Of a stretch of DNA of 64,000 nucleotides, positions 221 to 11,185 are shown in pieces. How positions within the stretch are numbered: position 1 is the first letter of the stretch; every line of letters begins with the position of its first letter. Source of the stretch: an uncultured Rhodothermaceae bacterium (GTDB taxonomy: Bacteria; Bacteroidota; Rhodothermia; Rhodothermales; Bin80); NCBI GenBank assembly GCA_964639665.1, contig CAZXEU010000121.1:48398-112397 (forward strand). Direction: 5' to 3'. Position numbers and translations under genes: made by a program. Below the pieces are notes generated by a model. The model was not told the DNA's origin and ran no database searches. It worked only from the letters and a program-made list of their open reading frames with translations.

Positions 221-1348
221 TCACATATCCACCGAATACACGACCAGCATCGGGGCCTCCCCTTCGCCCCCGGTATATCCATACGCCCGCCCGGATGCCA
301 GCCGGATGACGACAAGCGTGACGCTCTCCGGCAGCGTGGCTCGGCCTGCGACATCTCCGGACTCAGCCAGAACCAGCCATTCGGCGGTCGAATCCTCCCG
401 CTCCATGCTCTTGAGCCATACCTGCGCGCGGTCATCCACGGCTATTGCCCCGTAAGCCGGCTTGAAGCGGTGAATCGTGTCAAAGTCATCCGGCTGCACA
501 ATGGCGTCCCGTTCCGCGCGTGTTACCGGCACGGGATCATGATTCCGCTGGACGCGACCCAGAACCTTGCCTTGAAGCGATGTCACCAGGAGATCTATGG
601 TCTCGTTCCAGCCGGAATACAGCTTTCCGCTTCGGCTGTAGCGAAAGAAAGAACTGCGTCCAAACGGGACGGTACGGATCCCCGGACTACCGGGATTATC
701 CGAAAAGATCCGCAACTCAATTTGCGGCAAGCGTCGGGCCAACGGCCGCAGGAAAGTGCCATCCCGGCCCGTCTGGGCTACTACAGCATAGCGTTCCTGA
801 TCTGCATTAGATGTCGTGATACCGGGGGCGTATAGCGTGATCGGTCCTACGTCCGTTATTCCGATGACGCTAACGGGACTTCCCAGGGAATCGTGGCTCT
901 CAATGCGCAAGCTCTGATTAAAGCCCCAAGTCGCAGGATCGAAGATGGAAAGGGCCCGCCTTCTAAAGTCGTAGACATACACGGAGTCAGTGCTACCCAC
1001 GAATACATCGGAAATGGCCTGAAATTCCCCGGGACCTTCACCCGGACGACCGAACTGGCCTATCTGGTCACCGTCCGCAGAGAATACCCTGACATCCATG
1101 GACCTGCGGTCACCGACGAAGATTTGACCCGCTGAATTGACCGCCAGGCCGCCGATGCCTCCGAATAGGACGGTGTCTCCTGCGGCTTCATCACCTACTC
1201 GATACAGCTCGGATACGGCAATCTGCGAGGCTTCCTGCCAGGCCAGACCGCCGGCATGGCTGTCGCCGGAGGGTGTGGCGCATAGCAGGAATGGAATGAG
1301 AACGGCGGGAAGCCGCGTGCACTTGGCGCTGGACCTCGGGATGCGCAT
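221..1348 (-). CDS. Secreted 6-bladed beta-propeller (NHL-like repeat) protein
   Basis: The 394-aa ORF is trimmed to the internal ATG at 1348 (MRIPRSSAKCTRLPAVLIPFLLCATPSG looks like a signal peptide). It has repeated G-x-GPGEF / 'VYVYD' style propeller blades (GRPGEGPGEFQAISDVFVG). Confidence 0.6.
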   Translation of the reverse strand: MRIPRSSAKCTRLPAVLIPFLLCATPSGDSHAGGLAWQEASQIAVSELYRVGDEAAGDTVLFGGIGGLAVNSAGQIFVGDRRSMDVRVFSADGDQIGQFGRPGEGPGEFQAISDVFVGSTDSVYVYDFRRRALSIFDPATWGFNQSLRIESHDSLGSPVSVIGITDVGPITLYAPGITTSNADQERYAVVAQTGRDGTFLRPLARRLPQIELRIFSDNPGSPGIRTVPFGRSSFFRYSRSGKLYSGWNETIDLLVTSLQGKVLGRVQRNHDPVPVTRAERDAIVQPDDFDTIHRFKPAYGAIAVDDRAQVWLKSMEREDSTAEWLVLAESGDVAGRATLPESVTLVVIRLASGRAYGYTGGEGEAPMLVVYSVDM

Positions 1349-1585
1349 ATGGCTCGGACCTGACAGGGTTGGTGGTGCGGCGCGTTTGGGATTACATTCG
1401 GGCAACCATGATACAGCCGGCGGGACCCGGATACGTACCTGGCCGATCCGGTGCGCTTCCGCAAGCCCAGGAGTGTCGGGGAGCGTAGCCGTTTCATAAA
1501 TTCCGGTGCCTCGATGGCGGCGCCTCGCGCATTCCGGCGCGCGGCCCGGGTGCTTGCGAAAACGAAATCACGCGCGCTGCGGACC

Positions 1586-4500
1586 ATGTCCGAATTCTGC
1601 CACCTTCACTGCCACACATCCTATTCGCTGCTCGACGGTGCGGCCCGCATCGATGCGCTCGTCAGGCGCGCCGGCGAGCTGGAAATGAAAGCCATCGGCA
1701 TCAGTGACCACGGCAATCTGTTTGGCGTCCCCGAGTTTTTTACCACCGCAAGGAAAGCTGGCCTGCAGCCCGTTATAGGCTGCGAATTCTACCTCACGCC
1801 CGGCAGCCGGCTCGATCGGAAGGACCGCACGCGCTATCATCAGGTGCTTTGGGCCAAGGATGAATCCGGCTATCGCAACCTGGTTCAGCTTTCCTCGCTT
1901 TCATTCCAGGAGGGATTCTACTACAAGCCCCGCATCGACCGCGAGCTTCTCCGGAACCACGCAGACGGACTCGTAGCGACGACCTGCTGCCTGCAGGGCG
2001 AGGTGCCCCAGACGCTGCTTACTCGCGGAGAGGAGGCGGCCCGCACCGCATTTGAAGGCTATCTCGACCTGTTTGGCGAGGACTACTACATTGAGCTGCA
2101 GAACCACGGGATTGCGGACCAGCACAGGCTAAACGCCGTGCTGCTGAAGTGGGCGTCACAGTACGGCGTTAGGACCGTGGCTACCAATGACGTGCACTAC
2201 GTCTCCCGCGCCGACGCCCCGGCGCAGGATATCCTCCTTTGCCTGCAGACAGGGAAGGATCTGGACGATCCTGCCCGAATGCGCTTCGAAGGGGACCAGT
2301 TTTACCTGAAGAGCGCTGATGAAATGCGGCGCTCCATGGAAGATGTTGCGCCCGGTATCGCCGGCAAGGCACTGGCGACCACGGTCGAGATAGCGGACAA
2401 GTGCCGCTTCGAGCTCTCGATGGGGGGGCTTTTGATGCCGCACTTTGCGCTTCCGAGCGACTTCGAGGGTGACGCGGACGCCTACCTTCGCCACCTTGTC
2501 TACACAGGCGCGAGTAAGCGGTATGGGGAGATTTCTGAAGAGGTTACGGGCCGGCTAGACCACGAGCTTGGCATTATTTCCAAGATGGGATACGCCAGCT
2601 ACTTCCTGATCGTGCAGGACTTTACGCGGGCTGCAGGGGATCTGGGCGTAACCGTCGGGCCGGGAAGGGGCTCCGTAGCAGGAAGCGCGGCGGCCTTTTG
2701 CCTAGGCATCACCAACATTGATCCCCTGCAGTACAATCTGCTCTTCGAGCGCTTCCTCAACCCGGAGCGCGTCTCTATGCCCGACATCGATATCGACTTC
2801 GACGACCGGGGAAGGGCTGCGGTCATAGACTACGTCGTACGAAAGTACGGTCGCAACAGCGTCTGCCAGATCATTACGTACGGCACGATGGCTGCACGGA
2901 GTGTAATCCGCGACGTTGCGCGCGTATTGCGCATCCCGCTTGCCGAGGCGGACAGGATTGCCAAGCTGATCCCGGAGGGACCCGGCATGACGCTGGAAAA
3001 GGCCATGGATGAGGTGCCTGATTTCCGGGCCCTGCAGGACGATCCGCGCGATCAGATCCGACAGCTGCTCCAGTATGCCACGGTGCTGGAAGGCTCCGCC
3101 CGCCATACGGGTGTGCATGCTGCGGGCGTGATCATAGCGCCCGGCACGGTCAGCGATTACGTTCCTGTTGCCGTTACCAAGAGCAAGGGCGAACCGGTAC
3201 TCATCACGCAGTACGATGGGACGTGGGTGGAGAGATTCGGATTGCTCAAGATGGACTTCCTGGGCCTTTCCACCCTCACGGTCCTGAATGACGCCATCGC
3301 GCTGATCCGGGAGCACCGTGGCGAGAGTCTGGAACTGGAAGACATCCCGCTGGATGACGCCAGGACATTCGCGCTCTTCCAGCGCGGAGATACGCTGGGC
3401 ATATTCCAGTTCGAATCAGACGGCATGCGCGAGTGGCTGACGAAGCTTGTGCCCACGAGCATGGACGATCTCATCGCCATGAACGCGCTGTACAGGCCCG
3501 GTCCCATGGGCCTGATCCCGGTTTATATCGACCGCAAACACGGGCGGGAGGAGATCTCGTACTGGCATCCGATGCTAGAGCCGATCCTTCGCGAGACGTA
3601 CGGCATTCCCGTCTACCAGGAACAGGTCATGCAGATGGCCCAGGAAATGGCGGGCTACTCGCTGGGCGGCGCCGACCTCCTGCGCAGGGCCATGGGAAAG
3701 AAGAAGCAGGAGGAAATGGATCGCCAGCGAAGCATCTTTGTTCGCGGCGCGGCCCGAAGGAGCGTGGACGAAAGAACCGCCAACGAAGTCTTTGACGCGA
3801 TGGCCAAATTCGCCGGCTACGGCTTCAACAAGTGTCTGTCCGGGTGTACGCAGATCGTTCATGCCGACACGGGATCCAGGCTGAGCCTTGCATCGCTGTT
3901 TCGGCGCGGGTGCAGCGGCTTCATGGTTAGCGCCTTGGGCAATGACGGCAAGCTACATGCTCGAAGGGTAACGGACGTAGTGTGGAATGGCTACCGGAAA
4001 GTGTTTGAACTGGCGACGGCGTCCGGGCACCGCATTCGCGCCACCGCCACGCACCGGTTTCGTACGAGGCAGGGCTGGCGGCGGCTGGCCGAGATTGTCC
4101 CTGGAGAGCTCGTCGCTGCCGCCGATGAGGAACCGTTAGCAGCGCCCGGCAAAGCCGGCTCCGCAACTGCCGTGGCGAGCGCAGCGCAAACGCTGTGCTG
4201 GGATGCCGTGGTATCGATTCGTGACGCGGGACGCGCGGATACGTATGACCTGACCGTGGAAGGCGATCACAACTTCGTGGCCAACAATCTGATTGTACAC
4301 AACAGCCACAGCGCCGCCTATTCGCTCGTGGCGTACCATGCCGCCTACTTCAAGGCCAACTATCCGGCCGAATTCATGGCGGCCGCCATGACCAATATCA
4401 TGTCGGATACCAAGAAGCTGGCCGCGATGCTGGATGAAGCCCGAAAGCTGAAGCTTGAGATCCTGCCTCCGTCCGTCAACAGCAGTCGCGGTCCCTTCTC

Positions 4501-5524
4501 CGTCGACGACGGCAGGATTCGCTTCGGCATGTGCGCCGTAAAGGGCGTGGGGCAGGCAGCGGCCGAAGCCATCGTCGAGGCGCGCAAGACGCACGGCACC
4601 TCCCGGACGCTGTTTGGCTTCACACGCAACCTGGATCTGAAGACGGTTCCCAAAAGCGCCATGGAAGCTCTGGCTCGGGTCGGGGCACTGGATGACCTGA
4701 GCGGTCATCGCGCGGAGCTCGTGGCGGGCATTGGTTCCGCGAGAAAGTATGCCCTCAAGCAGCAGTCGGATGCGGCCATGGGCCAGAGTTCGCTCTTCGG
4801 CGACACCGGCCAGTTCGCGATGGAAGCGGAGCCACGGCTCAAAGCGCAGGAAGAGTGGCCGCGGTTAAGAAAGCTCACGGAAGAGCGTGAATTGATGGGC
4901 CTCTATATATCCGGCCATCCGCTTGATGCTTTTCGGCCGGAGGCCCGTGCATTCTCTACCGCGGCCTTCGCGGACACAGATCTGGAATTGGCCAGCGGAC
5001 CCAACGGGACCAGGCCCCTCCACTCCTTCTGCGCCATCATAACGGGCGTCCAGCGCAGAACCACGCGCAAGGGAGCTCCCATGGCGAGCGTTACGCTGGA
5101 AGACTACAGCGGACAGGCTGAAATGGTGTGCTTCTCGGCCGTCTTCGACAAGGTGCAGCAGTACCTGTCGGAAAACGAAGTCATTCTCGCACGCGGGGAG
5201 GTGGAAACAAGGGGCGGAAGCCTCAGGATTCTGGCGCGGGAAGTGACCCCCATGTGGAAAGTGCGCCGGGACATGGTTCAGAGCATAGTCGTGTGCATCA
5301 ACGCCCGCCGCGTGCAACTGCCCCAAATGGAGGCTTTTCGCAAGCTATGCGAAGACAATCGGGGCTCCTGCCGCCTGTATTTCGACGTCATTGATCCTGC
5401 GCGCCCGGACAGGCGGCAGCGCCTGCGAAGCCGCACATTTGTCGTGGAGCTGACATCGGAACTGATGGCCGGAGTGGCCAGTCTCTTCGGCGCCGACAAC
5501 ATTCACCTGGAAGCCAGGTCCTGA
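1586..5524 (+). CDS. dnaE: DNA polymerase III alpha subunit, carrying an in-frame mini-intein
   Basis: The PHP-domain start is MSEFCHLHCHTSYSLLDGA (ATG at 1586; the ORF's upstream extension is Arg-rich and unlikely). It carries PDIDIDF, GVHAAGVII, LLKMDFLGL and FQFES motifs, and the fingers motif FAGYGFNK...SHSAAYSLVAYHAAYFKANYP. Without the 157-aa insert it is about 1155 aa, a typical DnaE length. Confidence 0.95.
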   Translation: MSEFCHLHCHTSYSLLDGAARIDALVRRAGELEMKAIGISDHGNLFGVPEFFTTARKAGLQPVIGCEFYLTPGSRLDRKDRTRYHQVLWAKDESGYRNLVQLSSLSFQEGFYYKPRIDRELLRNHADGLVATTCCLQGEVPQTLLTRGEEAARTAFEGYLDLFGEDYYIELQNHGIADQHRLNAVLLKWASQYGVRTVATNDVHYVSRADAPAQDILLCLQTGKDLDDPARMRFEGDQFYLKSADEMRRSMEDVAPGIAGKALATTVEIADKCRFELSMGGLLMPHFALPSDFEGDADAYLRHLVYTGASKRYGEISEEVTGRLDHELGIISKMGYASYFLIVQDFTRAAGDLGVTVGPGRGSVAGSAAAFCLGITNIDPLQYNLLFERFLNPERVSMPDIDIDFDDRGRAAVIDYVVRKYGRNSVCQIITYGTMAARSVIRDVARVLRIPLAEADRIAKLIPEGPGMTLEKAMDEVPDFRALQDDPRDQIRQLLQYATVLEGSARHTGVHAAGVIIAPGTVSDYVPVAVTKSKGEPVLITQYDGTWVERFGLLKMDFLGLSTLTVLNDAIALIREHRGESLELEDIPLDDARTFALFQRGDTLGIFQFESDGMREWLTKLVPTSMDDLIAMNALYRPGPMGLIPVYIDRKHGREEISYWHPMLEPILRETYGIPVYQEQVMQMAQEMAGYSLGGADLLRRAMGKKKQEEMDRQRSIFVRGAARRSVDERTANEVFDAMAKFAGYGFNKCLSGCTQIVHADTGSRLSLASLFRRGCSGFMVSALGNDGKLHARRVTDVVWNGYRKVFELATASGHRIRATATHRFRTRQGWRRLAEIVPGELVAAADEEPLAAPGKAGSATAVASAAQTLCWDAVVSIRDAGRADTYDLTVEGDHNFVANNLIVHNSHSAAYSLVAYHAAYFKANYPAEFMAAAMTNIMSDTKKLAAMLDEARKLKLEILPPSVNSSRGPFSVDDGRIRFGMCAVKGVGQAAAEAIVEARKTHGTSRTLFGFTRNLDLKTVPKSAMEALARVGALDDLSGHRAELVAGIGSARKYALKQQSDAAMGQSSLFGDTGQFAMEAEPRLKAQEEWPRLRKLTEERELMGLYISGHPLDAFRPEARAFSTAAFADTDLELASGPNGTRPLHSFCAIITGVQRRTTRKGAPMASVTLEDYSGQAEMVCFSAVFDKVQQYLSENEVILARGEVETRGGSLRILAREVTPMWKVRRDMVQSIVVCINARRVQLPQMEAFRKLCEDNRGSCRLYFDVIDPARPDRRQRLRSRTFVVELTSELMAGVASLFGADNIHLEARS
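3833..4303 (+). mobile_element. Mini-intein (157 codons, no homing endonuclease domain) inside dnaE
   Basis: The DNA reads ggc ttc aac aag | tgt ctg tcc ... gta cac aac | agc cac agc. That is GFNK | CLSGCTQIVHADTG ... NNLIVHN | SHSAAY.
Block A starts at Cys1. Block B is GHRIRATATHRF (TxxH). Block F is TYDLTVEGDHNFVANN. Block G is VHN followed by Ser+1.
Removing it restores the conserved GFNKSHSAAY motif. Confidence 0.85.
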
Positions 5525-5540
5525 TCGACAGCGATGCTCC

Positions 5541-5969
5541 ATGGCGCGTGAAACAGTCCTGTTTGTATGTACGCACAACTCCTCGCGGTCCCAGATGGCG
5601 GAAGGGCTGCTGCGTGCCCGGCATGGGGAGCGGTATGTCGTCTATAGCGCGGGCACGCATCCTGGCGGCGTGAATCCGTTTGCCGTGACGGCCATGGCTG
5701 AGCTAGGGATTGACATAGCGGGACATCGATCGGATCAAGTCGACGCGTTTGCCGCCATGCCTATGGACTACGTGGTTACGGTTTGCGATTCGGCGAGGGA
5801 AAGCTGCCCCTACTTCGCCGCCCGGGTGCAAAACATCCATCACCGCTTCCGCGACCCTTCCGCCGTGCGCGGCAGCGACGAAGAGAGGCTCACCGCATTT
5901 CGCGAGATTCGCGACCAGATTGATGCATGGCTGGGCGAGACCTTCGGCCCGGGCAAGCGGGTTTCCTGA
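5541..5969 (+). CDS. arsC: Arsenate reductase, LMW-PTP / thioredoxin-coupled type
   Basis: It has the CX5R(S) P-loop VLFVCTHNSSRSQMAEG and a downstream Cys pair, VCDSARESCPYF, with the C-x7-C spacing seen in S. aureus-type ArsC. It is 142 aa. Confidence 0.85.
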   Translation: MARETVLFVCTHNSSRSQMAEGLLRARHGERYVVYSAGTHPGGVNPFAVTAMAELGIDIAGHRSDQVDAFAAMPMDYVVTVCDSARESCPYFAARVQNIHHRFRDPSAVRGSDEERLTAFREIRDQIDAWLGETFGPGKRVS

Positions 5970-5978
5970 CCGGCATCC

Positions 5979-6665
5979 ATGGCGGCGCGCATCGGCATAA
6001 CGACTTTGTTCGAATCGGAAGAATACAGGCTTGACCAGCGGTATGTGCGGGCGATAGAGGCTGTCGGCGGCCTGCCCGTGCTGCTGCCAGTCTTGCAAGA
6101 GTCCCGCGGCGTCGCGCAAATGCTGGACGGCCTGCTGATTCCGGGCGGCCCTGCCGTGACGCAGGGCCTTGTCGGCCTGCTTCCGGATGACCTGGAAGCC
6201 GCTCATCCCGGGCACACGGCATCCGCGGTCGCCATCCTGCAGGCTTTCGTGACCGCCGGAAAGCCCGTGCTTGGAATCTGCTACGGCATGCAACTGATGA
6301 GTGCAAATGCCGGGGGCACCATTTTCGGAGACGTGGAACGTGAATTACCGGGGGCTGCTGTCCACAGCCAGGTGCGCGGGGCTTCTTGCCATCCGGTGCA
6401 TGTACGCCGGGACTCGTGGCTTTACCGCATCCTGGGGAATGACAGGTTCTCGGTCAACACGCGCCACATTCAGGCAGTAGCGACACCCGGGGCGGGATTC
6501 GCAGTCTCCGCGACGGCGCCTGACGGCGTGGTGGAGGCCATCGAGAACGCGTCCGGGTCCATGATCGGCGTGCAGTTTCACCCGGAGCGCATGGAAGAGG
6601 TCATGCGCCCGCTCTTTGCACACCTGGTATCCACCGCGGTCAGGCATGGCGAACGGCGTGCATAG
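5979..6665 (+). CDS. Class I glutamine amidotransferase-like hydrolase (gamma-glutamyl-GABA hydrolase / peptidase C26 family)
   Basis: It has the nucleophile elbow GICYGMQLM and the His-Glu motif VQFHPE. It is 228 aa. Confidence 0.75.
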   Translation: MAARIGITTLFESEEYRLDQRYVRAIEAVGGLPVLLPVLQESRGVAQMLDGLLIPGGPAVTQGLVGLLPDDLEAAHPGHTASAVAILQAFVTAGKPVLGICYGMQLMSANAGGTIFGDVERELPGAAVHSQVRGASCHPVHVRRDSWLYRILGNDRFSVNTRHIQAVATPGAGFAVSATAPDGVVEAIENASGSMIGVQFHPERMEEVMRPLFAHLVSTAVRHGERRA

Positions 6666-7077
6666 TCTCTGGACAGAAATAAGAAGCATCGGGACCGGCG
6701 AGCGGGCAATCCGCTCCTTCGGCCTCCTGGTGGGCGGCGTGCTCCTCGTACTCGGAGTCCTGTTGCAGGAACATCGCGGGGCGAGCGTGCCCCTGATCGT
6801 CGCGGGCGCATTGCTACTGGTGCTCGGACCCGTCGCTCCGCGGCTATTGACGGCGCCGTACAGAGTCTGGATGGCACTCGCGCTGGTGCTGGGCTACGTC
6901 ATGACCCGGGTCTTGCTGGCGGCCGTTTATTTCCTGATCGTAACTCCCCTCGGCATCGCGATGCGACTCAGCGGACGTGACCCCATGCAGCGCAAGCGAA
7001 GCGCGGAGCGGACAACGTACTGGAGCCCGCGCGAAGGCGAGGATGATGCCCGCAAGAGACTGGAACGGCTTTACTGA
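6646..7077 (+). CDS. Small membrane protein, SxtJ-like
   Basis: Two long hydrophobic hairpins (LLVGGVLLVLGVLL, LIVAGALLLVLGPV, ALALVLGYVMTRVLLAAVYFLIVTPLG) are followed by RLSGRDPMQRK. This resembles the SxtJ family as I remember it. I chose the ATG at 6646; the start is uncertain. It overlaps the upstream gene's end by 20 nt. Confidence 0.45.
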   Translation: MANGVHSLWTEIRSIGTGERAIRSFGLLVGGVLLVLGVLLQEHRGASVPLIVAGALLLVLGPVAPRLLTAPYRVWMALALVLGYVMTRVLLAAVYFLIVTPLGIAMRLSGRDPMQRKRSAERTTYWSPREGEDDARKRLERLY

Positions 7078-9179
7078 GCAGCCTCTGCCATCAGCCGTTC
7101 TTGCAGTCCAGGCCCCGGCCCTCGCCTGTGCCGGTAGGCGCCGTCCGGGCCAAGCTCCCATGCGAGATGCTGCTCGGTCACGGCACCGGTCAGAAACCTC
7201 GAAAGGCGCCTTCCAAGCGCCCGGCACGACACGGGAACGGCTACCTCCACCCGCTCATCCAGGTGATAGCGGCGCCAGTCAGCGCTACCTATGAAGAGCT
7301 CAGGAGCATCTCCGGCTCCAAAGGAGAAGATCCGGAGGTTCTCGGTATAGCGACCCACAATGCTCACGACGCGAATGTTCTCGCTGTAGCCTGCCAGCCC
7401 CGGGCGCAAGCGGCAGGGACCGCGAACAACCAGGTCAATTCTGGCCCCCGCCGCGGCAGCGCGATACAGCTCCTGAATAATGGCGGCGTCGTCCAGTTCA
7501 TTCATGGCCGCCATGATGTGTCCTGCACGGGCCGCCTCCCGCCGGATCAGGTCGATAAATGCCCGGCGCATCCCGGCCGGTGCCACAAGGACCTTGCGGA
7601 AGTCCTGGACAGGGGCATATCCCGTCAGAAAATTGAATAGATCGGTGATATCTGCGCCGATGTCCGCATCCGCGGTCAGGATCCCAACATCCGAATGGGT
7701 AGAAGCCGATTCGGAGTTGTAGTTGCCGGTACCTATGTGGCAAAATGTCTCGGTGACATCATCTTCGCTGCGAACAACGAGCGTGACCTTGGCATGTGTC
7801 TTGAGTCTGGGCAGCCCGTATGTGACAGAGACGCCGGAATCCTCCAGGCGCCGCCCCCATGCGAGGTTCTGCTCTTCGTCATAGCGGGCTTTTGCCTCGA
7901 CGTGGACGGCAACCTGCTTTCCGGCCTGCGCAGCCCGCATCAGGGCCGCCAGGATCATGGAGTCCTCGGACGTGCGATACAGTGTCTGCTTGATGGCAAG
8001 CACGTACGGATCGTCGGCCGCCTCTTTCACGAATCGCAGTACGGATTCCTGGAAGCTCTCGTACGGATGGTGCAGCAGAATATCCTTGCTGCGAACGACA
8101 TCAAACAAGCTGCGATTACTCGAGAACGCGGGCGGCGCAGCCGCGACAAACGCGGGGCCGGCACACTCCGGCTCTGCCAGGCCTGCCAAGTCCTGCAAGT
8201 CTGACGGGTCCAGCAGCGCTGTCGCCTCGTAGATGTCGTCGGCATCTATGAGCAGGTGCTGCATCAGCAAACGGTGCACTTTCCTAGGCATGGACCGCTC
8301 CACCTCGAGACGCACTACCGGCGCGAAGCGGCGCCTTCGGAGGTGATCACTGACCATGGTCAGCAGATCATCTGCCTCCTCCTCATTGTGGCGCAAGTCT
8401 GCGTTGCGGGTAACCCGGAAGGCATAGGCACCGGTGATGTCCATGCCGCGAAACAGGTCATCCAGATTGTGCCTGACCGCCTCTTGCAGGGAAATAGCGC
8501 CCCCCGTCAGCTTGATCCAGCCACCATGCAGGCGGGGGACCTTGACCCGGGCAAAGTGCCGCGTCCCGCGCTTGGGATGGCGGACCGTGACGGCGAGAGA
8601 CCGGCTCAGGTTGGATATGAAAGGGAACGGATGGCCCGGATCTACCGCAAGAGGCGTGAGCGTCGGCAGGATGTGCTCCACAAATACGCGGCGCAGCTCG
8701 GCTGCCTGGGCGTCTGTCAGCGACCCGTAATTCCAGATAACATGTATGCCGGCCTGCCCAAGGGAGGGCCGAATGTCATCCTGCCACGTCGCACCCATGG
8801 CGTCGTAGAGCGGCACCGCAGCCTGGCGAACCAGACTCAGCTGCTCGCGCACCGTGTAGGCATCAGGGCCGATAGCCGTCACGCTGGACAGGAGTTGCCT
8901 CTTGAGTCCGCCGACGCGCTTGCTGAAGAATTCATCGAGGAAACCCGCCGTTTCCGATAGCGCGCGAAGCCGCTCATGCAAAGGAAGGCGCGTGTCCATC
9001 GCGCGGGCCAGCAGCCGCCACGCGTAGTCCATCCAGCTCAGCTCGCGATTGAAGTACAGGCGGGGGTCGTCCGGGGCGCATCCGGCCGGCACCTTGCGCG
9101 CAGCTGTTGCAACGGCAAGCCGCGGAGCCCCGTCCCATGCACCGACATGGTGCCGGTCGGCTGCCTTTGTCTTCTTCAT
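7071..9179 (-). CDS. ppk: Polyphosphate kinase 1
   Basis: YFNRELSWMDYAWRLL is a typical PPK1 N-terminus. It has two PLD-like halves (HAKVTLV..., GTGNYN) and is 702 aa. Its ATG overlaps the dnaG stop (ATGA at 9176-9179). Confidence 0.95.
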   Translation of the reverse strand: MKKTKAADRHHVGAWDGAPRLAVATAARKVPAGCAPDDPRLYFNRELSWMDYAWRLLARAMDTRLPLHERLRALSETAGFLDEFFSKRVGGLKRQLLSSVTAIGPDAYTVREQLSLVRQAAVPLYDAMGATWQDDIRPSLGQAGIHVIWNYGSLTDAQAAELRRVFVEHILPTLTPLAVDPGHPFPFISNLSRSLAVTVRHPKRGTRHFARVKVPRLHGGWIKLTGGAISLQEAVRHNLDDLFRGMDITGAYAFRVTRNADLRHNEEEADDLLTMVSDHLRRRRFAPVVRLEVERSMPRKVHRLLMQHLLIDADDIYEATALLDPSDLQDLAGLAEPECAGPAFVAAAPPAFSSNRSLFDVVRSKDILLHHPYESFQESVLRFVKEAADDPYVLAIKQTLYRTSEDSMILAALMRAAQAGKQVAVHVEAKARYDEEQNLAWGRRLEDSGVSVTYGLPRLKTHAKVTLVVRSEDDVTETFCHIGTGNYNSESASTHSDVGILTADADIGADITDLFNFLTGYAPVQDFRKVLVAPAGMRRAFIDLIRREAARAGHIMAAMNELDDAAIIQELYRAAAAGARIDLVVRGPCRLRPGLAGYSENIRVVSIVGRYTENLRIFSFGAGDAPELFIGSADWRRYHLDERVEVAVPVSCRALGRRLSRFLTGAVTEQHLAWELGPDGAYRHRRGPGPGLQERLMAEAAQ

Positions 9180-10993
9180 GCCTTTCGCGGCCGAAAATCG
9201 GTCTTTAGTATGCGAACCCTTTCCCGCTGGAGCTGCCTGATCTCCTGCAACACGCGGCTTTGCTCGGCAGGAGCCAGCTTGTGCATTTTCGCCTGCAGTG
9301 CACTCTCCTTCCTGCCCAAACGGTTCCTCTTCAGCTTCTTGATGGCATCGCTGGCCACCAAATCCGGCTGCTCGTTAAGTGCCGGTACCTCGATCCGTTT
9401 CTTCGCCCAATGCGGTGACGGTGCATAGCGATCCATCTGCACCTCCACAGCAAGCTTGCCAGCCATTTCGCTGTCGGCCTCGGCAATTCGGCTGCGGATT
9501 TCCTCTACCGGCCGGTCGCACAGCTGATAAAGCAGCGCAGCTACGTCCCGGGCAGCACCTTCCGAGAATTCGTCCAGCTCCACGTGCTCCAGCACCTGCC
9601 TGATGATTACGCCACCCCCATCCGCCATCAGCCGCAGCAGCATGCGTTCCTCGGGGGCGATGCTGGTCCTGACATCCTGCACGACGGGGGCGCGCCTGCC
9701 GCGCACAGGCTCCAGAGCGCGGCGCAGCTGCGCTTCGGGTAGTCGGAGCAGTTTCCGGGCCCGGCGAACATAGGATTCCTGCAGCAATGGGTCAGGGATG
9801 CGCCGCAGGGCCGCGATGACGTTGCGCATGGTTTCCGCCTCTCCTTCCGGGGTGCCGGCCGCACCGCTCATACGCGCGGTCTCCATCATGAATTCGACAA
9901 AGTCCCGGCGGTGCGTCCGTGCATACTCCTGGAAGGCCGCGCCCCCCTTTTCCCTTACAAAGGAATCCGGATCGAATCCCTCCGGTAGCGTTATCGCGTA
10001 AGCTGACAGGCCACCCGCGAGCACCAGGTCCACACTGCGCATGGCAGCCTTTGCACCTGCTTCGTCTGCGTCGAAGAGCAGCACCATCTGCTTTGCGTAG
10101 CGTCCGACCAGCCGGACCTGCTGCGGCGTCAGCGCCGTGCCGCACGTGGCGACCACGTGTTCCACACCTGCCTGGTGCAGGGAAATTACGTCCGTATATC
10201 CCTCCACCAGTATGGCTTCATCCTGCTTCCGTATGGCGACCCTGCCCTGGAACAGGCCGTAAAGCGCAAGGCTCTTGGAGTACACGAGCGTCTCGGGCGA
10301 GTTTATGTACTTGGGAGCGTCCGGGTCGCCGTTCAGAATCCGCCCGCCAAACCCCACCACCTTGCCCGCCTGGGAAACGATCGGAAACATGATCCGACCA
10401 CGAAAACGGTCATAGTGACCGCTACCTGTCTTCCTGGGCGCCGCCAGCCCTGCTCGCTCCAGTACGTCGGGCGCAATGTGCTGGCGAGATCCCTCCGTGA
10501 GAAGCCCGTCCCAGCCGGCCGGAGCATACCCCAGCCCAAATCGCTTGATGGTCTCCGGAAGCAGTCCGCGATCGCGCAGATAGCGCAATGCCTCCTTGCC
10601 AGGCGGAGTCGTCTGGAGCTGGGAATGGAAGTACTTGGCGGCGAATCGCAGAGCAGCATACAGCGATTCGTGTTCGGCTGCCCGTTGACGATCCTGGTCG
10701 CTTCGGGGCAATTCGATGCCGGCGCGGCCAGCCAGCTTGCGTACCGCCTCCACAAAGGAGAGCGCTTCCACCTGCATCAGGAACTGGAATACGTTGCCAC
10801 CCTTGCCACAGCCGAAGCACTTGAAGATGCCGCGGGACGGACTGACATTGAAGGACGGCGTCTTTTCGTCGTGAAAAGGACACAGTCCTACAAAGTTGCT
10901 GCCGCGCTGCCGGAGCCGTACGTGTTGCCCAACTACGCTGACAATGTCAGATGCCGCACGTACCTCGTCGATCGTGTGTTCGGGTATCCGCAT
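9176..10993 (-). CDS. dnaG: DNA primase
   Basis: It has the zinc ribbon CPFHDEKTPSFNVSPSRGIFKCFGCGKGGNVFQFLM and a TOPRIM region (LVEGYTDVISLHQAG, LLFDADEAG). The start is placed at the ATG at 10993 (MRIPEHTIDEV); the ORF extends to 11032. Confidence 0.95.
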   Translation of the reverse strand: MRIPEHTIDEVRAASDIVSVVGQHVRLRQRGSNFVGLCPFHDEKTPSFNVSPSRGIFKCFGCGKGGNVFQFLMQVEALSFVEAVRKLAGRAGIELPRSDQDRQRAAEHESLYAALRFAAKYFHSQLQTTPPGKEALRYLRDRGLLPETIKRFGLGYAPAGWDGLLTEGSRQHIAPDVLERAGLAAPRKTGSGHYDRFRGRIMFPIVSQAGKVVGFGGRILNGDPDAPKYINSPETLVYSKSLALYGLFQGRVAIRKQDEAILVEGYTDVISLHQAGVEHVVATCGTALTPQQVRLVGRYAKQMVLLFDADEAGAKAAMRSVDLVLAGGLSAYAITLPEGFDPDSFVREKGGAAFQEYARTHRRDFVEFMMETARMSGAAGTPEGEAETMRNVIAALRRIPDPLLQESYVRRARKLLRLPEAQLRRALEPVRGRRAPVVQDVRTSIAPEERMLLRLMADGGGVIIRQVLEHVELDEFSEGAARDVAALLYQLCDRPVEEIRSRIAEADSEMAGKLAVEVQMDRYAPSPHWAKKRIEVPALNEQPDLVASDAIKKLKRNRLGRKESALQAKMHKLAPAEQSRVLQEIRQLQRERVRILKTDFRPRKA

Positions 10994-11185
10994 CCGACTC
11001 CGCAGGCTTCGCTCAAGGCGCTGCCTTCTCAACCGGAGCCCTCTCGGGCTTGTCCGAACATTGGCAAGAACCGATCGTCATGCAGGAGGCGAGGAATATG
11101 GCAACCAAAACGCTCTTCATGGCGGGACCGCTCTACGTTCGCCCAAATATAAGCAACGTCCCGCGCTGCCGACACCGCACGCGCT

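Follow-up and report, generated by a model that had tools for sequence, protein, structure and literature searches.

The window, i.e. the whole stretch of 64,000 nucleotides of DNA that was analysed, from an uncultured member of the Rhodothermaceae, carries on its + strand a gene for the alpha subunit of DNA polymerase III (dnaE), whose 1312 codons run without interruption to a stop codon at 5522-5524 in the ORF listing. The longest ORF call for this gene starts at a GTG (1451); we placed the start at the ATG at 1586 because the homologue P0014 begins with MSEFCHLH, which matches the translation from 1586. The encoded protein was identified as DnaE by NCBIfam PRK05673 (1316.8 bits), and Pfam found the PHP, DNA_pol3_alpha, DNA_pol3_finger, HHH_6 and OB fold domains in it. 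The features of the locus are given below; in peptide motifs a slash outside brackets marks the splice junction, and L001 is the nearest locus found in other genomes.

1586 to 5524, + strand: dnaE gene, DNA polymerase III alpha precursor, 1312 aa plus stop
1586 to 3832, + strand: N-extein, 749 aa, with FAGYGFNK as its C-terminal end; dN/dS 0.09 against L001
3833 to 4303, + strand: predicted class 1 mini-intein, 157 aa (CLSG...IVHN), without a homing endonuclease; PF14890
3833 to 3874, + strand: block A, with the nucleophile Cys1 at 3833-3835 and the clade-specific Cys5 at 3845-3847
4043 to 4054, + strand: block B, T71-x-x-H74 (TATH, within ATATHRF); T71 and H74 invariant in alignment A4
4118 to 4192, + strand: Ala/Pro-rich linker, intein residues 96-120, at the endonuclease position of related alleles
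4241 to 4282, + strand: block F, TYDLTVEGDHNFVA, intein residues 137-150; D139, D145, H146 and N147 invariant
4283 to 4303, + strand: block G, NNLIVHN, including the last two intein residues, His156 and Asn157; TIGR01443 match
4304 to 5521, + strand: C-extein, 406 aa, beginning with SHSAAY; dN/dS 0.085 against L001

Translation of 3833-4303 (+) gives exactly 157 codons, CLSGCTQIVHADTG...DHNFVANNLIVHN, with FAGYGFNK before them and SHSAAY after them. The conserved fingers motif of the polymerase is thus cut as GYGFNK/SHSAAY within the 1312-residue frame that begins at the ATG at 1586, as the original prediction had stated, and the clean gap of 157 residues that it expected at K/S was also found: the intein-free DnaE proteins P0138 and P0125 read GYGFNKSHSAAY uninterrupted, and their alignment with the window DnaE (71-76% identity over the aligned extein stretch) leaves a gap of exactly that length. 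The spliced DnaE is predicted to have 1155 residues. The exact DnaE protein of the window is absent from the protein cluster collection. A profile built from alignment A4 matched 3833-4303 alone, i.e. no second intein of the same family was found within the window. An antisense ORF at 4136-4708 was considered as a gene and judged a likely artefact of the high GC content.

The insert was matched by Pfam Intein_splicing (PF14890, E = 7.6e-19), by the NCBIfam model of the intein N-terminal region (TIGR01445, 31.2 against a cut-off of 24.5) and by that of the C-terminal region (TIGR01443, 28.7 against a cut-off of 15.6). Judged by these sequence matches, the 157-residue insert in DnaE is an intein, well beyond chance. 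[quoted passage not shown] The claim that no LAGLIDADG or HNH endonuclease is present was likewise borne out, Pfam finding only the splicing domain in the 157-residue insert. An AlphaFold2 model of the intein, for which 16 aligned sequences were used, shows an all-beta HINT domain (mean pLDDT 90.5, pTM 0.83) in which pLDDT falls below 50 only at residues 107-115, within the Ala/Pro-rich linker. When the model was compared with the PDB by Foldseek, its best matches were intein structures, with TM scores of 0.8-0.94 and E values down to 2e-14. We are confident, from this model, that the insert would fold as a HINT domain with a disordered linker.

We determined how widely the junction occurs by scanning genomes, one per species, with an alignment of the C-terminal junction (A1) as the query. 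A ...VHN/SHS junction is encoded in the genomes of 221 species. Among the 80 best of these loci, 66 have FNK/C in frame with HN/SH(S/A) and eight have GYGFNR/C in place of FNK/C, again in frame with HN/SH(S/A); in one (L032) the N-terminal junction lies in a different frame, and five are truncated at a contig end or could not be assigned for other reasons. The alleles at the FNK/SH site in these 80 loci share the pattern CxxGxT...DHNFVA(N/D)GL(I/V)VHN. The hosts include Rhodothermales, other Bacteroidota, Eisenbacteria, Planctomycetota (with Neorhodopirellula pilleata, Rubripirellula obstinata and Stieleria sedimenti as named strains), cable bacteria, Competibacter, Burkholderiales, Acidobacteriota, Myxococcota and others. 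When 1.84 billion cluster representatives were searched exhaustively with HMMER, a 277-aa query across the junction gave 254 matches at E <= 1e-30, and GYGFNK/C is found in about 90 of the best 150 of these. A search for homologous proteins with the intein and 20-aa flanks gave 12 matches, mostly fragments, which were informative for the C-terminal junction. Over the splicing domain, the window intein is 38-89% identical to the alleles in 24 compared loci; for an allele from a Gemmataceae MAG the value is 47.7%.

The site is also an established one in the intein literature. Table S1 of PMC3359363 gives the contents of InBase in June 2009, and its DnaE entries include Tth-HB27 DnaE-2 (residues 1239-1661 followed by S1662, cassette FNKSHAA, i.e. 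FNK/SHAA) and Gob DnaE (residues 762-1207 followed by S1208, cassette FNKSHTA, i.e. FNK/SHTA); one further FNK match, the third, agrees with the row for Tth-HB8 DnaE-2. Other DnaE sites in these entries are LRR/(S/C)MGK (Tth DnaE-1 and Ter DnaE-2) and GVL/CYQE (Ter DnaE-1). The FNK/SH insertion site has therefore been catalogued since at least 2009, with Ser+1, and the suggestion that the allele in the window might be uncatalogued has to be given up on the evidence of these entries. The inteins of Thermus thermophilus (Tth-HB27 and Tth-HB8 DnaE-2) and Gemmata obscuriglobus (Gob DnaE) share the host protein, the insertion point and Ser+1 with the window intein, the likeness being drawn from the junction cassettes FNK/SHAA and FNK/SHTA as compared with FNK/SHSA. 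They differ from it in size, the catalogued Tth DnaE-2 and Gob DnaE inteins having 423-446 residues, in the size range of alleles with an endonuclease, whereas the window intein has 157 residues and no endonuclease, and in origin, the window intein coming from an uncultured Rhodothermales lineage. An 'Rma DnaE split intein' with X/Ser split points appears in a 2026 preprint, under a name that may refer either to a Rhodothermus DnaE intein or to the Rma DnaB intein.

We consider it very likely that the insert in DnaE is a class 1 mini-intein that splices in cis and belongs to the known FNK/SH allele represented in InBase by Tth DnaE-2 and Gob DnaE. Because the site is catalogued and was found in more than 200 species' genomes, the window intein is an unremarkable addition to a known family. 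With the allele catalogued and its junction present in the genomes of 221 species, the novelty of the insertion and the interest in it as a case of site migration fall away, and as one more natural mini-intein in a well-populated DnaE allele it has little significance beyond annotation.

Comparison of the alleles at this site indicates how the window intein may have reached its present size. Most FNK/SH alleles have 430-466 residues, and LAGLIDADG_3 was found by Pfam in all six of the full-length alleles of this size class that were scanned. Intermediates of 206-303 residues have lost LAGLIDADG_3 or retain a faint remnant of it (Pfam), and natural mini-inteins of 144-168 residues occur in several lineages (L001, L002, L003, L045, L052 and L069). 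The original prediction had placed the Ala/Pro-rich linker where an endonuclease usually lies, and this proved to be so, since the endonuclease of P0016 aligns exactly into it; the two-piece matches in the HMMER search of representatives break at intein residues ~97-103 and resume at ~115-125. In the alignment of mini alleles, the linker differs in both length and sequence. The linker is probably a deletion scar, because it occupies the position of the LAGLIDADG endonuclease in related alleles. The simplest history is that the window intein is what remains of a homing intein after a decayed endonuclease was deleted.

A different origin had been proposed for the insert, namely that it is a cis-splicing relative of the split DnaE intein of Npu and Ssp that migrated four residues downstream and exchanged Cys+1 for Ser+1. 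The C-extein of the Npu and Ssp split inteins begins with Cys-Phe-Asn (PMC3585056), and the split intein is therefore inserted at Y/CFNK, four residues upstream of the junction in the window and with Cys+1, just as the original prediction had stated. The two kinds of intein share a host protein and a conserved motif, both belong to the class 1 HINT inteins and resemble each other in blocks B, F and G, and the structures of Ssp and Npu DnaE are among the significant Foldseek matches of the window model, all of which would fit a shift of the insertion point. The split inteins, however, are naturally split, before Cys-Phe-Asn and with Cys+1, and are encoded by two separate genes, whereas the window intein is contiguous within a single 1312-codon ORF and joined to its exteins at K/S with Ser+1. 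Nor are the split DnaE inteins its nearest relatives, DnaB and RecA inteins giving much better scores. In a phmmer search of the PDB, the window intein matched Ssp DnaB at 9.4e-22 and Npu DnaB at 1.1e-21, as against 4e-6 for Npu DnaE and 5e-3 for Ssp DnaE, and the Foldseek order was the Ssp and Npu DnaB inteins (35-37% identity), the Mtu RecA intein (~30%) and then Ssp DnaE (23%) and Npu DnaE (25%). The Npu DnaE sequence, entered by hand, aligned to the profile of the FNK/SH family over 81 columns only, with 29.6% identity.

The fingers of PolIII alpha are described as an intein hot spot by Novikova et al. 2016 (PMC4760082), sites a-d and g lying within 75 residues of each other and site a being that of the split cyanobacterial intein. 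The FNK/SH family includes LAGLIDADG-bearing members of its own in many phyla, a sign that it homed independently into a neighbouring site of this hot spot, which would account for the closeness of FNK/SH to the split-intein site. Descent from the split intein by a four-residue migration is thus extremely unlikely, and the data lean towards the window intein not being a shifted derivative of it. Of the earlier proposal of a cis-splicing relative at a shifted junction, the contiguous arrangement and the native Ser+1 stand, but the phmmer and Foldseek comparisons place the DnaB inteins closer to the window intein than the split DnaE inteins.

Outside DnaE, the profile of the FNK/SH inteins matched DnaB inteins, with 37-40% identity over their full length, and also ThyX inteins. 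Because Ser+1 is used by the DnaB inteins and by most of the ThyX inteins found in this way, it is the norm of a DnaB-like clade and not an adaptation. The closest solved relatives are the Ssp DnaB mini-intein (1MI8) and the Npu DnaB intein (4O1R), with TM scores of 0.8-0.9. Cys1 and Ser+1 are common to the DnaB inteins and the window intein, as is the block G motif HNFVAN(D/G)xIVHN/S, and the DnaB mini-inteins, like the window intein, have a short linker where the endonuclease would lie. They differ in location: they sit in the helicase at RESG/SIEQD (junction RESG/C...HN/SIEQD), whereas the window intein sits in the polymerase fingers. Unlike the window intein, which is a natural mini-intein, the Ssp DnaB mini-intein is a product of engineering, in which its endonuclease was deleted. 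The Mtu RecA mini-intein (2IMZ and 3IFJ; TM 0.84-0.94 and ~30% identity to the window model) has a different host and uses Cys+1. As a part for protein engineering, the window intein is predicted to be a compact Cys1/Ser+1 cis-splicing intein, for which the Ssp and Npu DnaB mini-inteins are existing equivalents.

We used the nearest locus, L001, to examine how the intein has evolved in its present host. This locus, in a Rhodothermales MAG (CBDBLZ010000021.1), is syntenic with the window at 90% DNA identity over 10.4 kb, and its intein has 159 residues, with a 2-aa indel in the linker relative to the window. By the Nei-Gojobori method, dN/dS between the window and L001 was 0.09 for the exteins and 0.16 for the whole intein; within the intein it was 0.20 for the N-terminal splicing part, 0.26 for the linker, which also had the highest dN (0.18), and 0.03 for the C-terminal splicing part, i.e. 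blocks F and G. In an approximate NJ tree that carries no support values, the inteins of the window, L001, L002 and L003 form a single Rhodothermales mini-intein clade, and the GC content of the intein equals that of the host gene. Low dN/dS on the splicing blocks is a sign of purifying selection and suggests that the intein still splices. Taken together, the GC match, the synteny with L001, the mini-intein clade and the dN/dS values point to an intein that has been resident for a long time and inherited vertically, with its splicing function maintained.

The loss of the endonuclease and the fast evolution of the linker could also be read as signs of decay, in which case the insert would be a relic that no longer splices, either tolerated as an insertion in the fingers domain or carried by a dnaE copy that is a pseudogene. 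Such a relic is hardly to be expected to keep all of its catalytic residues intact, to have a dN/dS of 0.16 for the whole intein and 0.03 in blocks F and G, or to lie in a dnaE frame that is open over 1312 codons, and relatives still carry mini alleles, with 55-89% identity. An unspliced DnaE is, moreover, unlikely to work because the insert splits the conserved GYGFNKSHS motif. We therefore regard a non-splicing relic as most improbable, and a mini-intein that continues to splice remains the preferred reading.

We inferred the steps of splicing from known intein chemistry and the residues that are conserved, and the history of the element by comparison with its relatives. An N-S acyl shift at Cys1, aided by T71 and H74, would produce a thioester, which Ser+1 would then attack to give a branched intermediate. 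Cyclisation of Asn157, aided by His156 and block F, would release the intein, and an O-N shift would restore the GYGFNK-SHSAAY peptide bond, yielding an active polymerase of 1155 residues. Historically, an ancestor of ~450 residues with a LAGLIDADG homing endonuclease would have invaded dnaE and become fixed in the Rhodothermales lineage of the window; decay and deletion of the endonuclease would then have left the disordered Ala/Pro linker, the splicing domain being retained, we propose, because the host needs a spliced polymerase. The window intein would in this way show, within the Rhodothermales, the usual course of an intein's life, from invasion through fixation to loss of the endonuclease.

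The members of the Rhodothermales mini-intein clade also share a second cysteine close to the nucleophile. The inteins of the window, L001, L002 and L003 begin with CLSGC or CLAGC (C1-x-x-x-C5), and Cys5 was found in none of the other alleles among the matches listed, i.e. the best 150 of the 254 cluster representatives and the best 80 of the 221 loci. Inteins that are controlled by disulfide formation have been described in the literature, and the confinement of CLSGC/CLAGC to these four among the alleles listed would fit a redox-gated intein in which, under oxidising conditions, Cys1 is tied up in a disulfide with Cys5, Cys27 or Cys122, so that maturation of the polymerase is delayed. Against this, Cys5 occurs in four related sequences only and could be neutral, and we regard redox gating as a long shot. 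The more specific proposal, that throughout the Rhodothermales mini clade a reversible disulfide between Cys1 and Cys5 acts as a redox switch and makes the element a domesticated regulatory intein and not a mere relic, is very improbable; if it were true, this disulfide would gate the maturation of a replicative polymerase. Redox gating can hold alongside the explanation of the insert as a mini-intein. The intein would have special appeal for engineering only if Cys5 made its splicing redox-dependent.

The longest open reading frame called for the dnaE gene that carries the intein starts at a GTG codon (window position 1451), which places 45 extra codons (1451-1585) before the ATG at 1586. The homologous protein P0014 begins MSEFCHLH, matching the ATG at 1586, and the 45 upstream codons are therefore probably not translated. 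The neighbours of dnaE across positions 221-11032 are ordinary chromosomal genes:

221-1405, minus strand, beta-propeller protein
5541-5969, LMW phosphatase or ArsC-like gene
5979-6665, peptidase C26 or GATase gene
7071-9179, minus strand, polyphosphate kinase
9176-11032, minus strand, DnaG primase

A search with a profile of the window's DnaE intein family found no intein of that family in the DnaG primase.

The N-terminus of the window's intein and of three other Rhodothermales mini alleles (L001, L002 and L003) reads CLSGC or CLAGC, i.e. C1-x-x-x-C5. In the window the second of these cysteines is encoded at:

3845-3847, plus strand, codon for intein Cys5 (from translation)

No cysteine was present at position 5 in any of the other alleles among the best 80 of 221 loci and the top 150 of 254 cluster representatives. 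Cys5 could possibly form a redox-sensitive pair with the catalytic Cys1. Two further cysteines, Cys27 and Cys122, are common to the window's intein and the L001 allele.

The Rma DnaB intein is well known. A preprint (bioRxiv 10.64898/2026.04.13.718054) employs what it calls an 'Rma DnaE split intein', split at points that precede Ser; this name may refer either to a Rhodothermus DnaE intein of the FNK|SH allele or to the Rma DnaB intein renamed.

The N-junction itself varies among the 80 best of the 221 loci: eight intein-bearing DnaE genes (L006, L008, L009, L013, L028, L042, L064 and L079) read GYGFNR|C instead of GYGFNK|C, placing Arg at the -1 position, where Lys is otherwise conserved. 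At L032:341-1645, from an Eisenbacteria MAG, the intein N-junction and C-junction do not share a reading frame; this could reflect a frameshift within the endonuclease region, faulty assembly or a gene in the process of breaking down.

Two further proteins, P0011 and P0113, have the same junction (...VVHN|SHSSSFAL). Since P0011 is called an error-prone DNA polymerase (DnaE2-type) in one source, the DnaE2 paralogue may be a further host of the FNK|SH allele. In the DnaE fragment P0012 an upstream intein ends at ...VVHN|CTGQG. The sequence that comes next, GYGFNK|SLYFLQ...TWDHKF, has the look of a second intein, at the FNK site, starting with Ser instead of Cys. In another DnaE, P0124, GYGFNKSHSAAY is intact and an intein of LAGLIDADG size lies elsewhere, at LRR|C...HN|CMGKK, the InBase site of Tth DnaE-1 and Ter DnaE-2.

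P0164 and P0165 carry 136-aa inteins of the same clade as the window's intein, to which they are 40-46% identical, at the junction SSITK|C...HN|SING; the two host proteins are small and contain HTH domains (GerE or sigma-70 region 4), which makes them unusual hosts for an intein.
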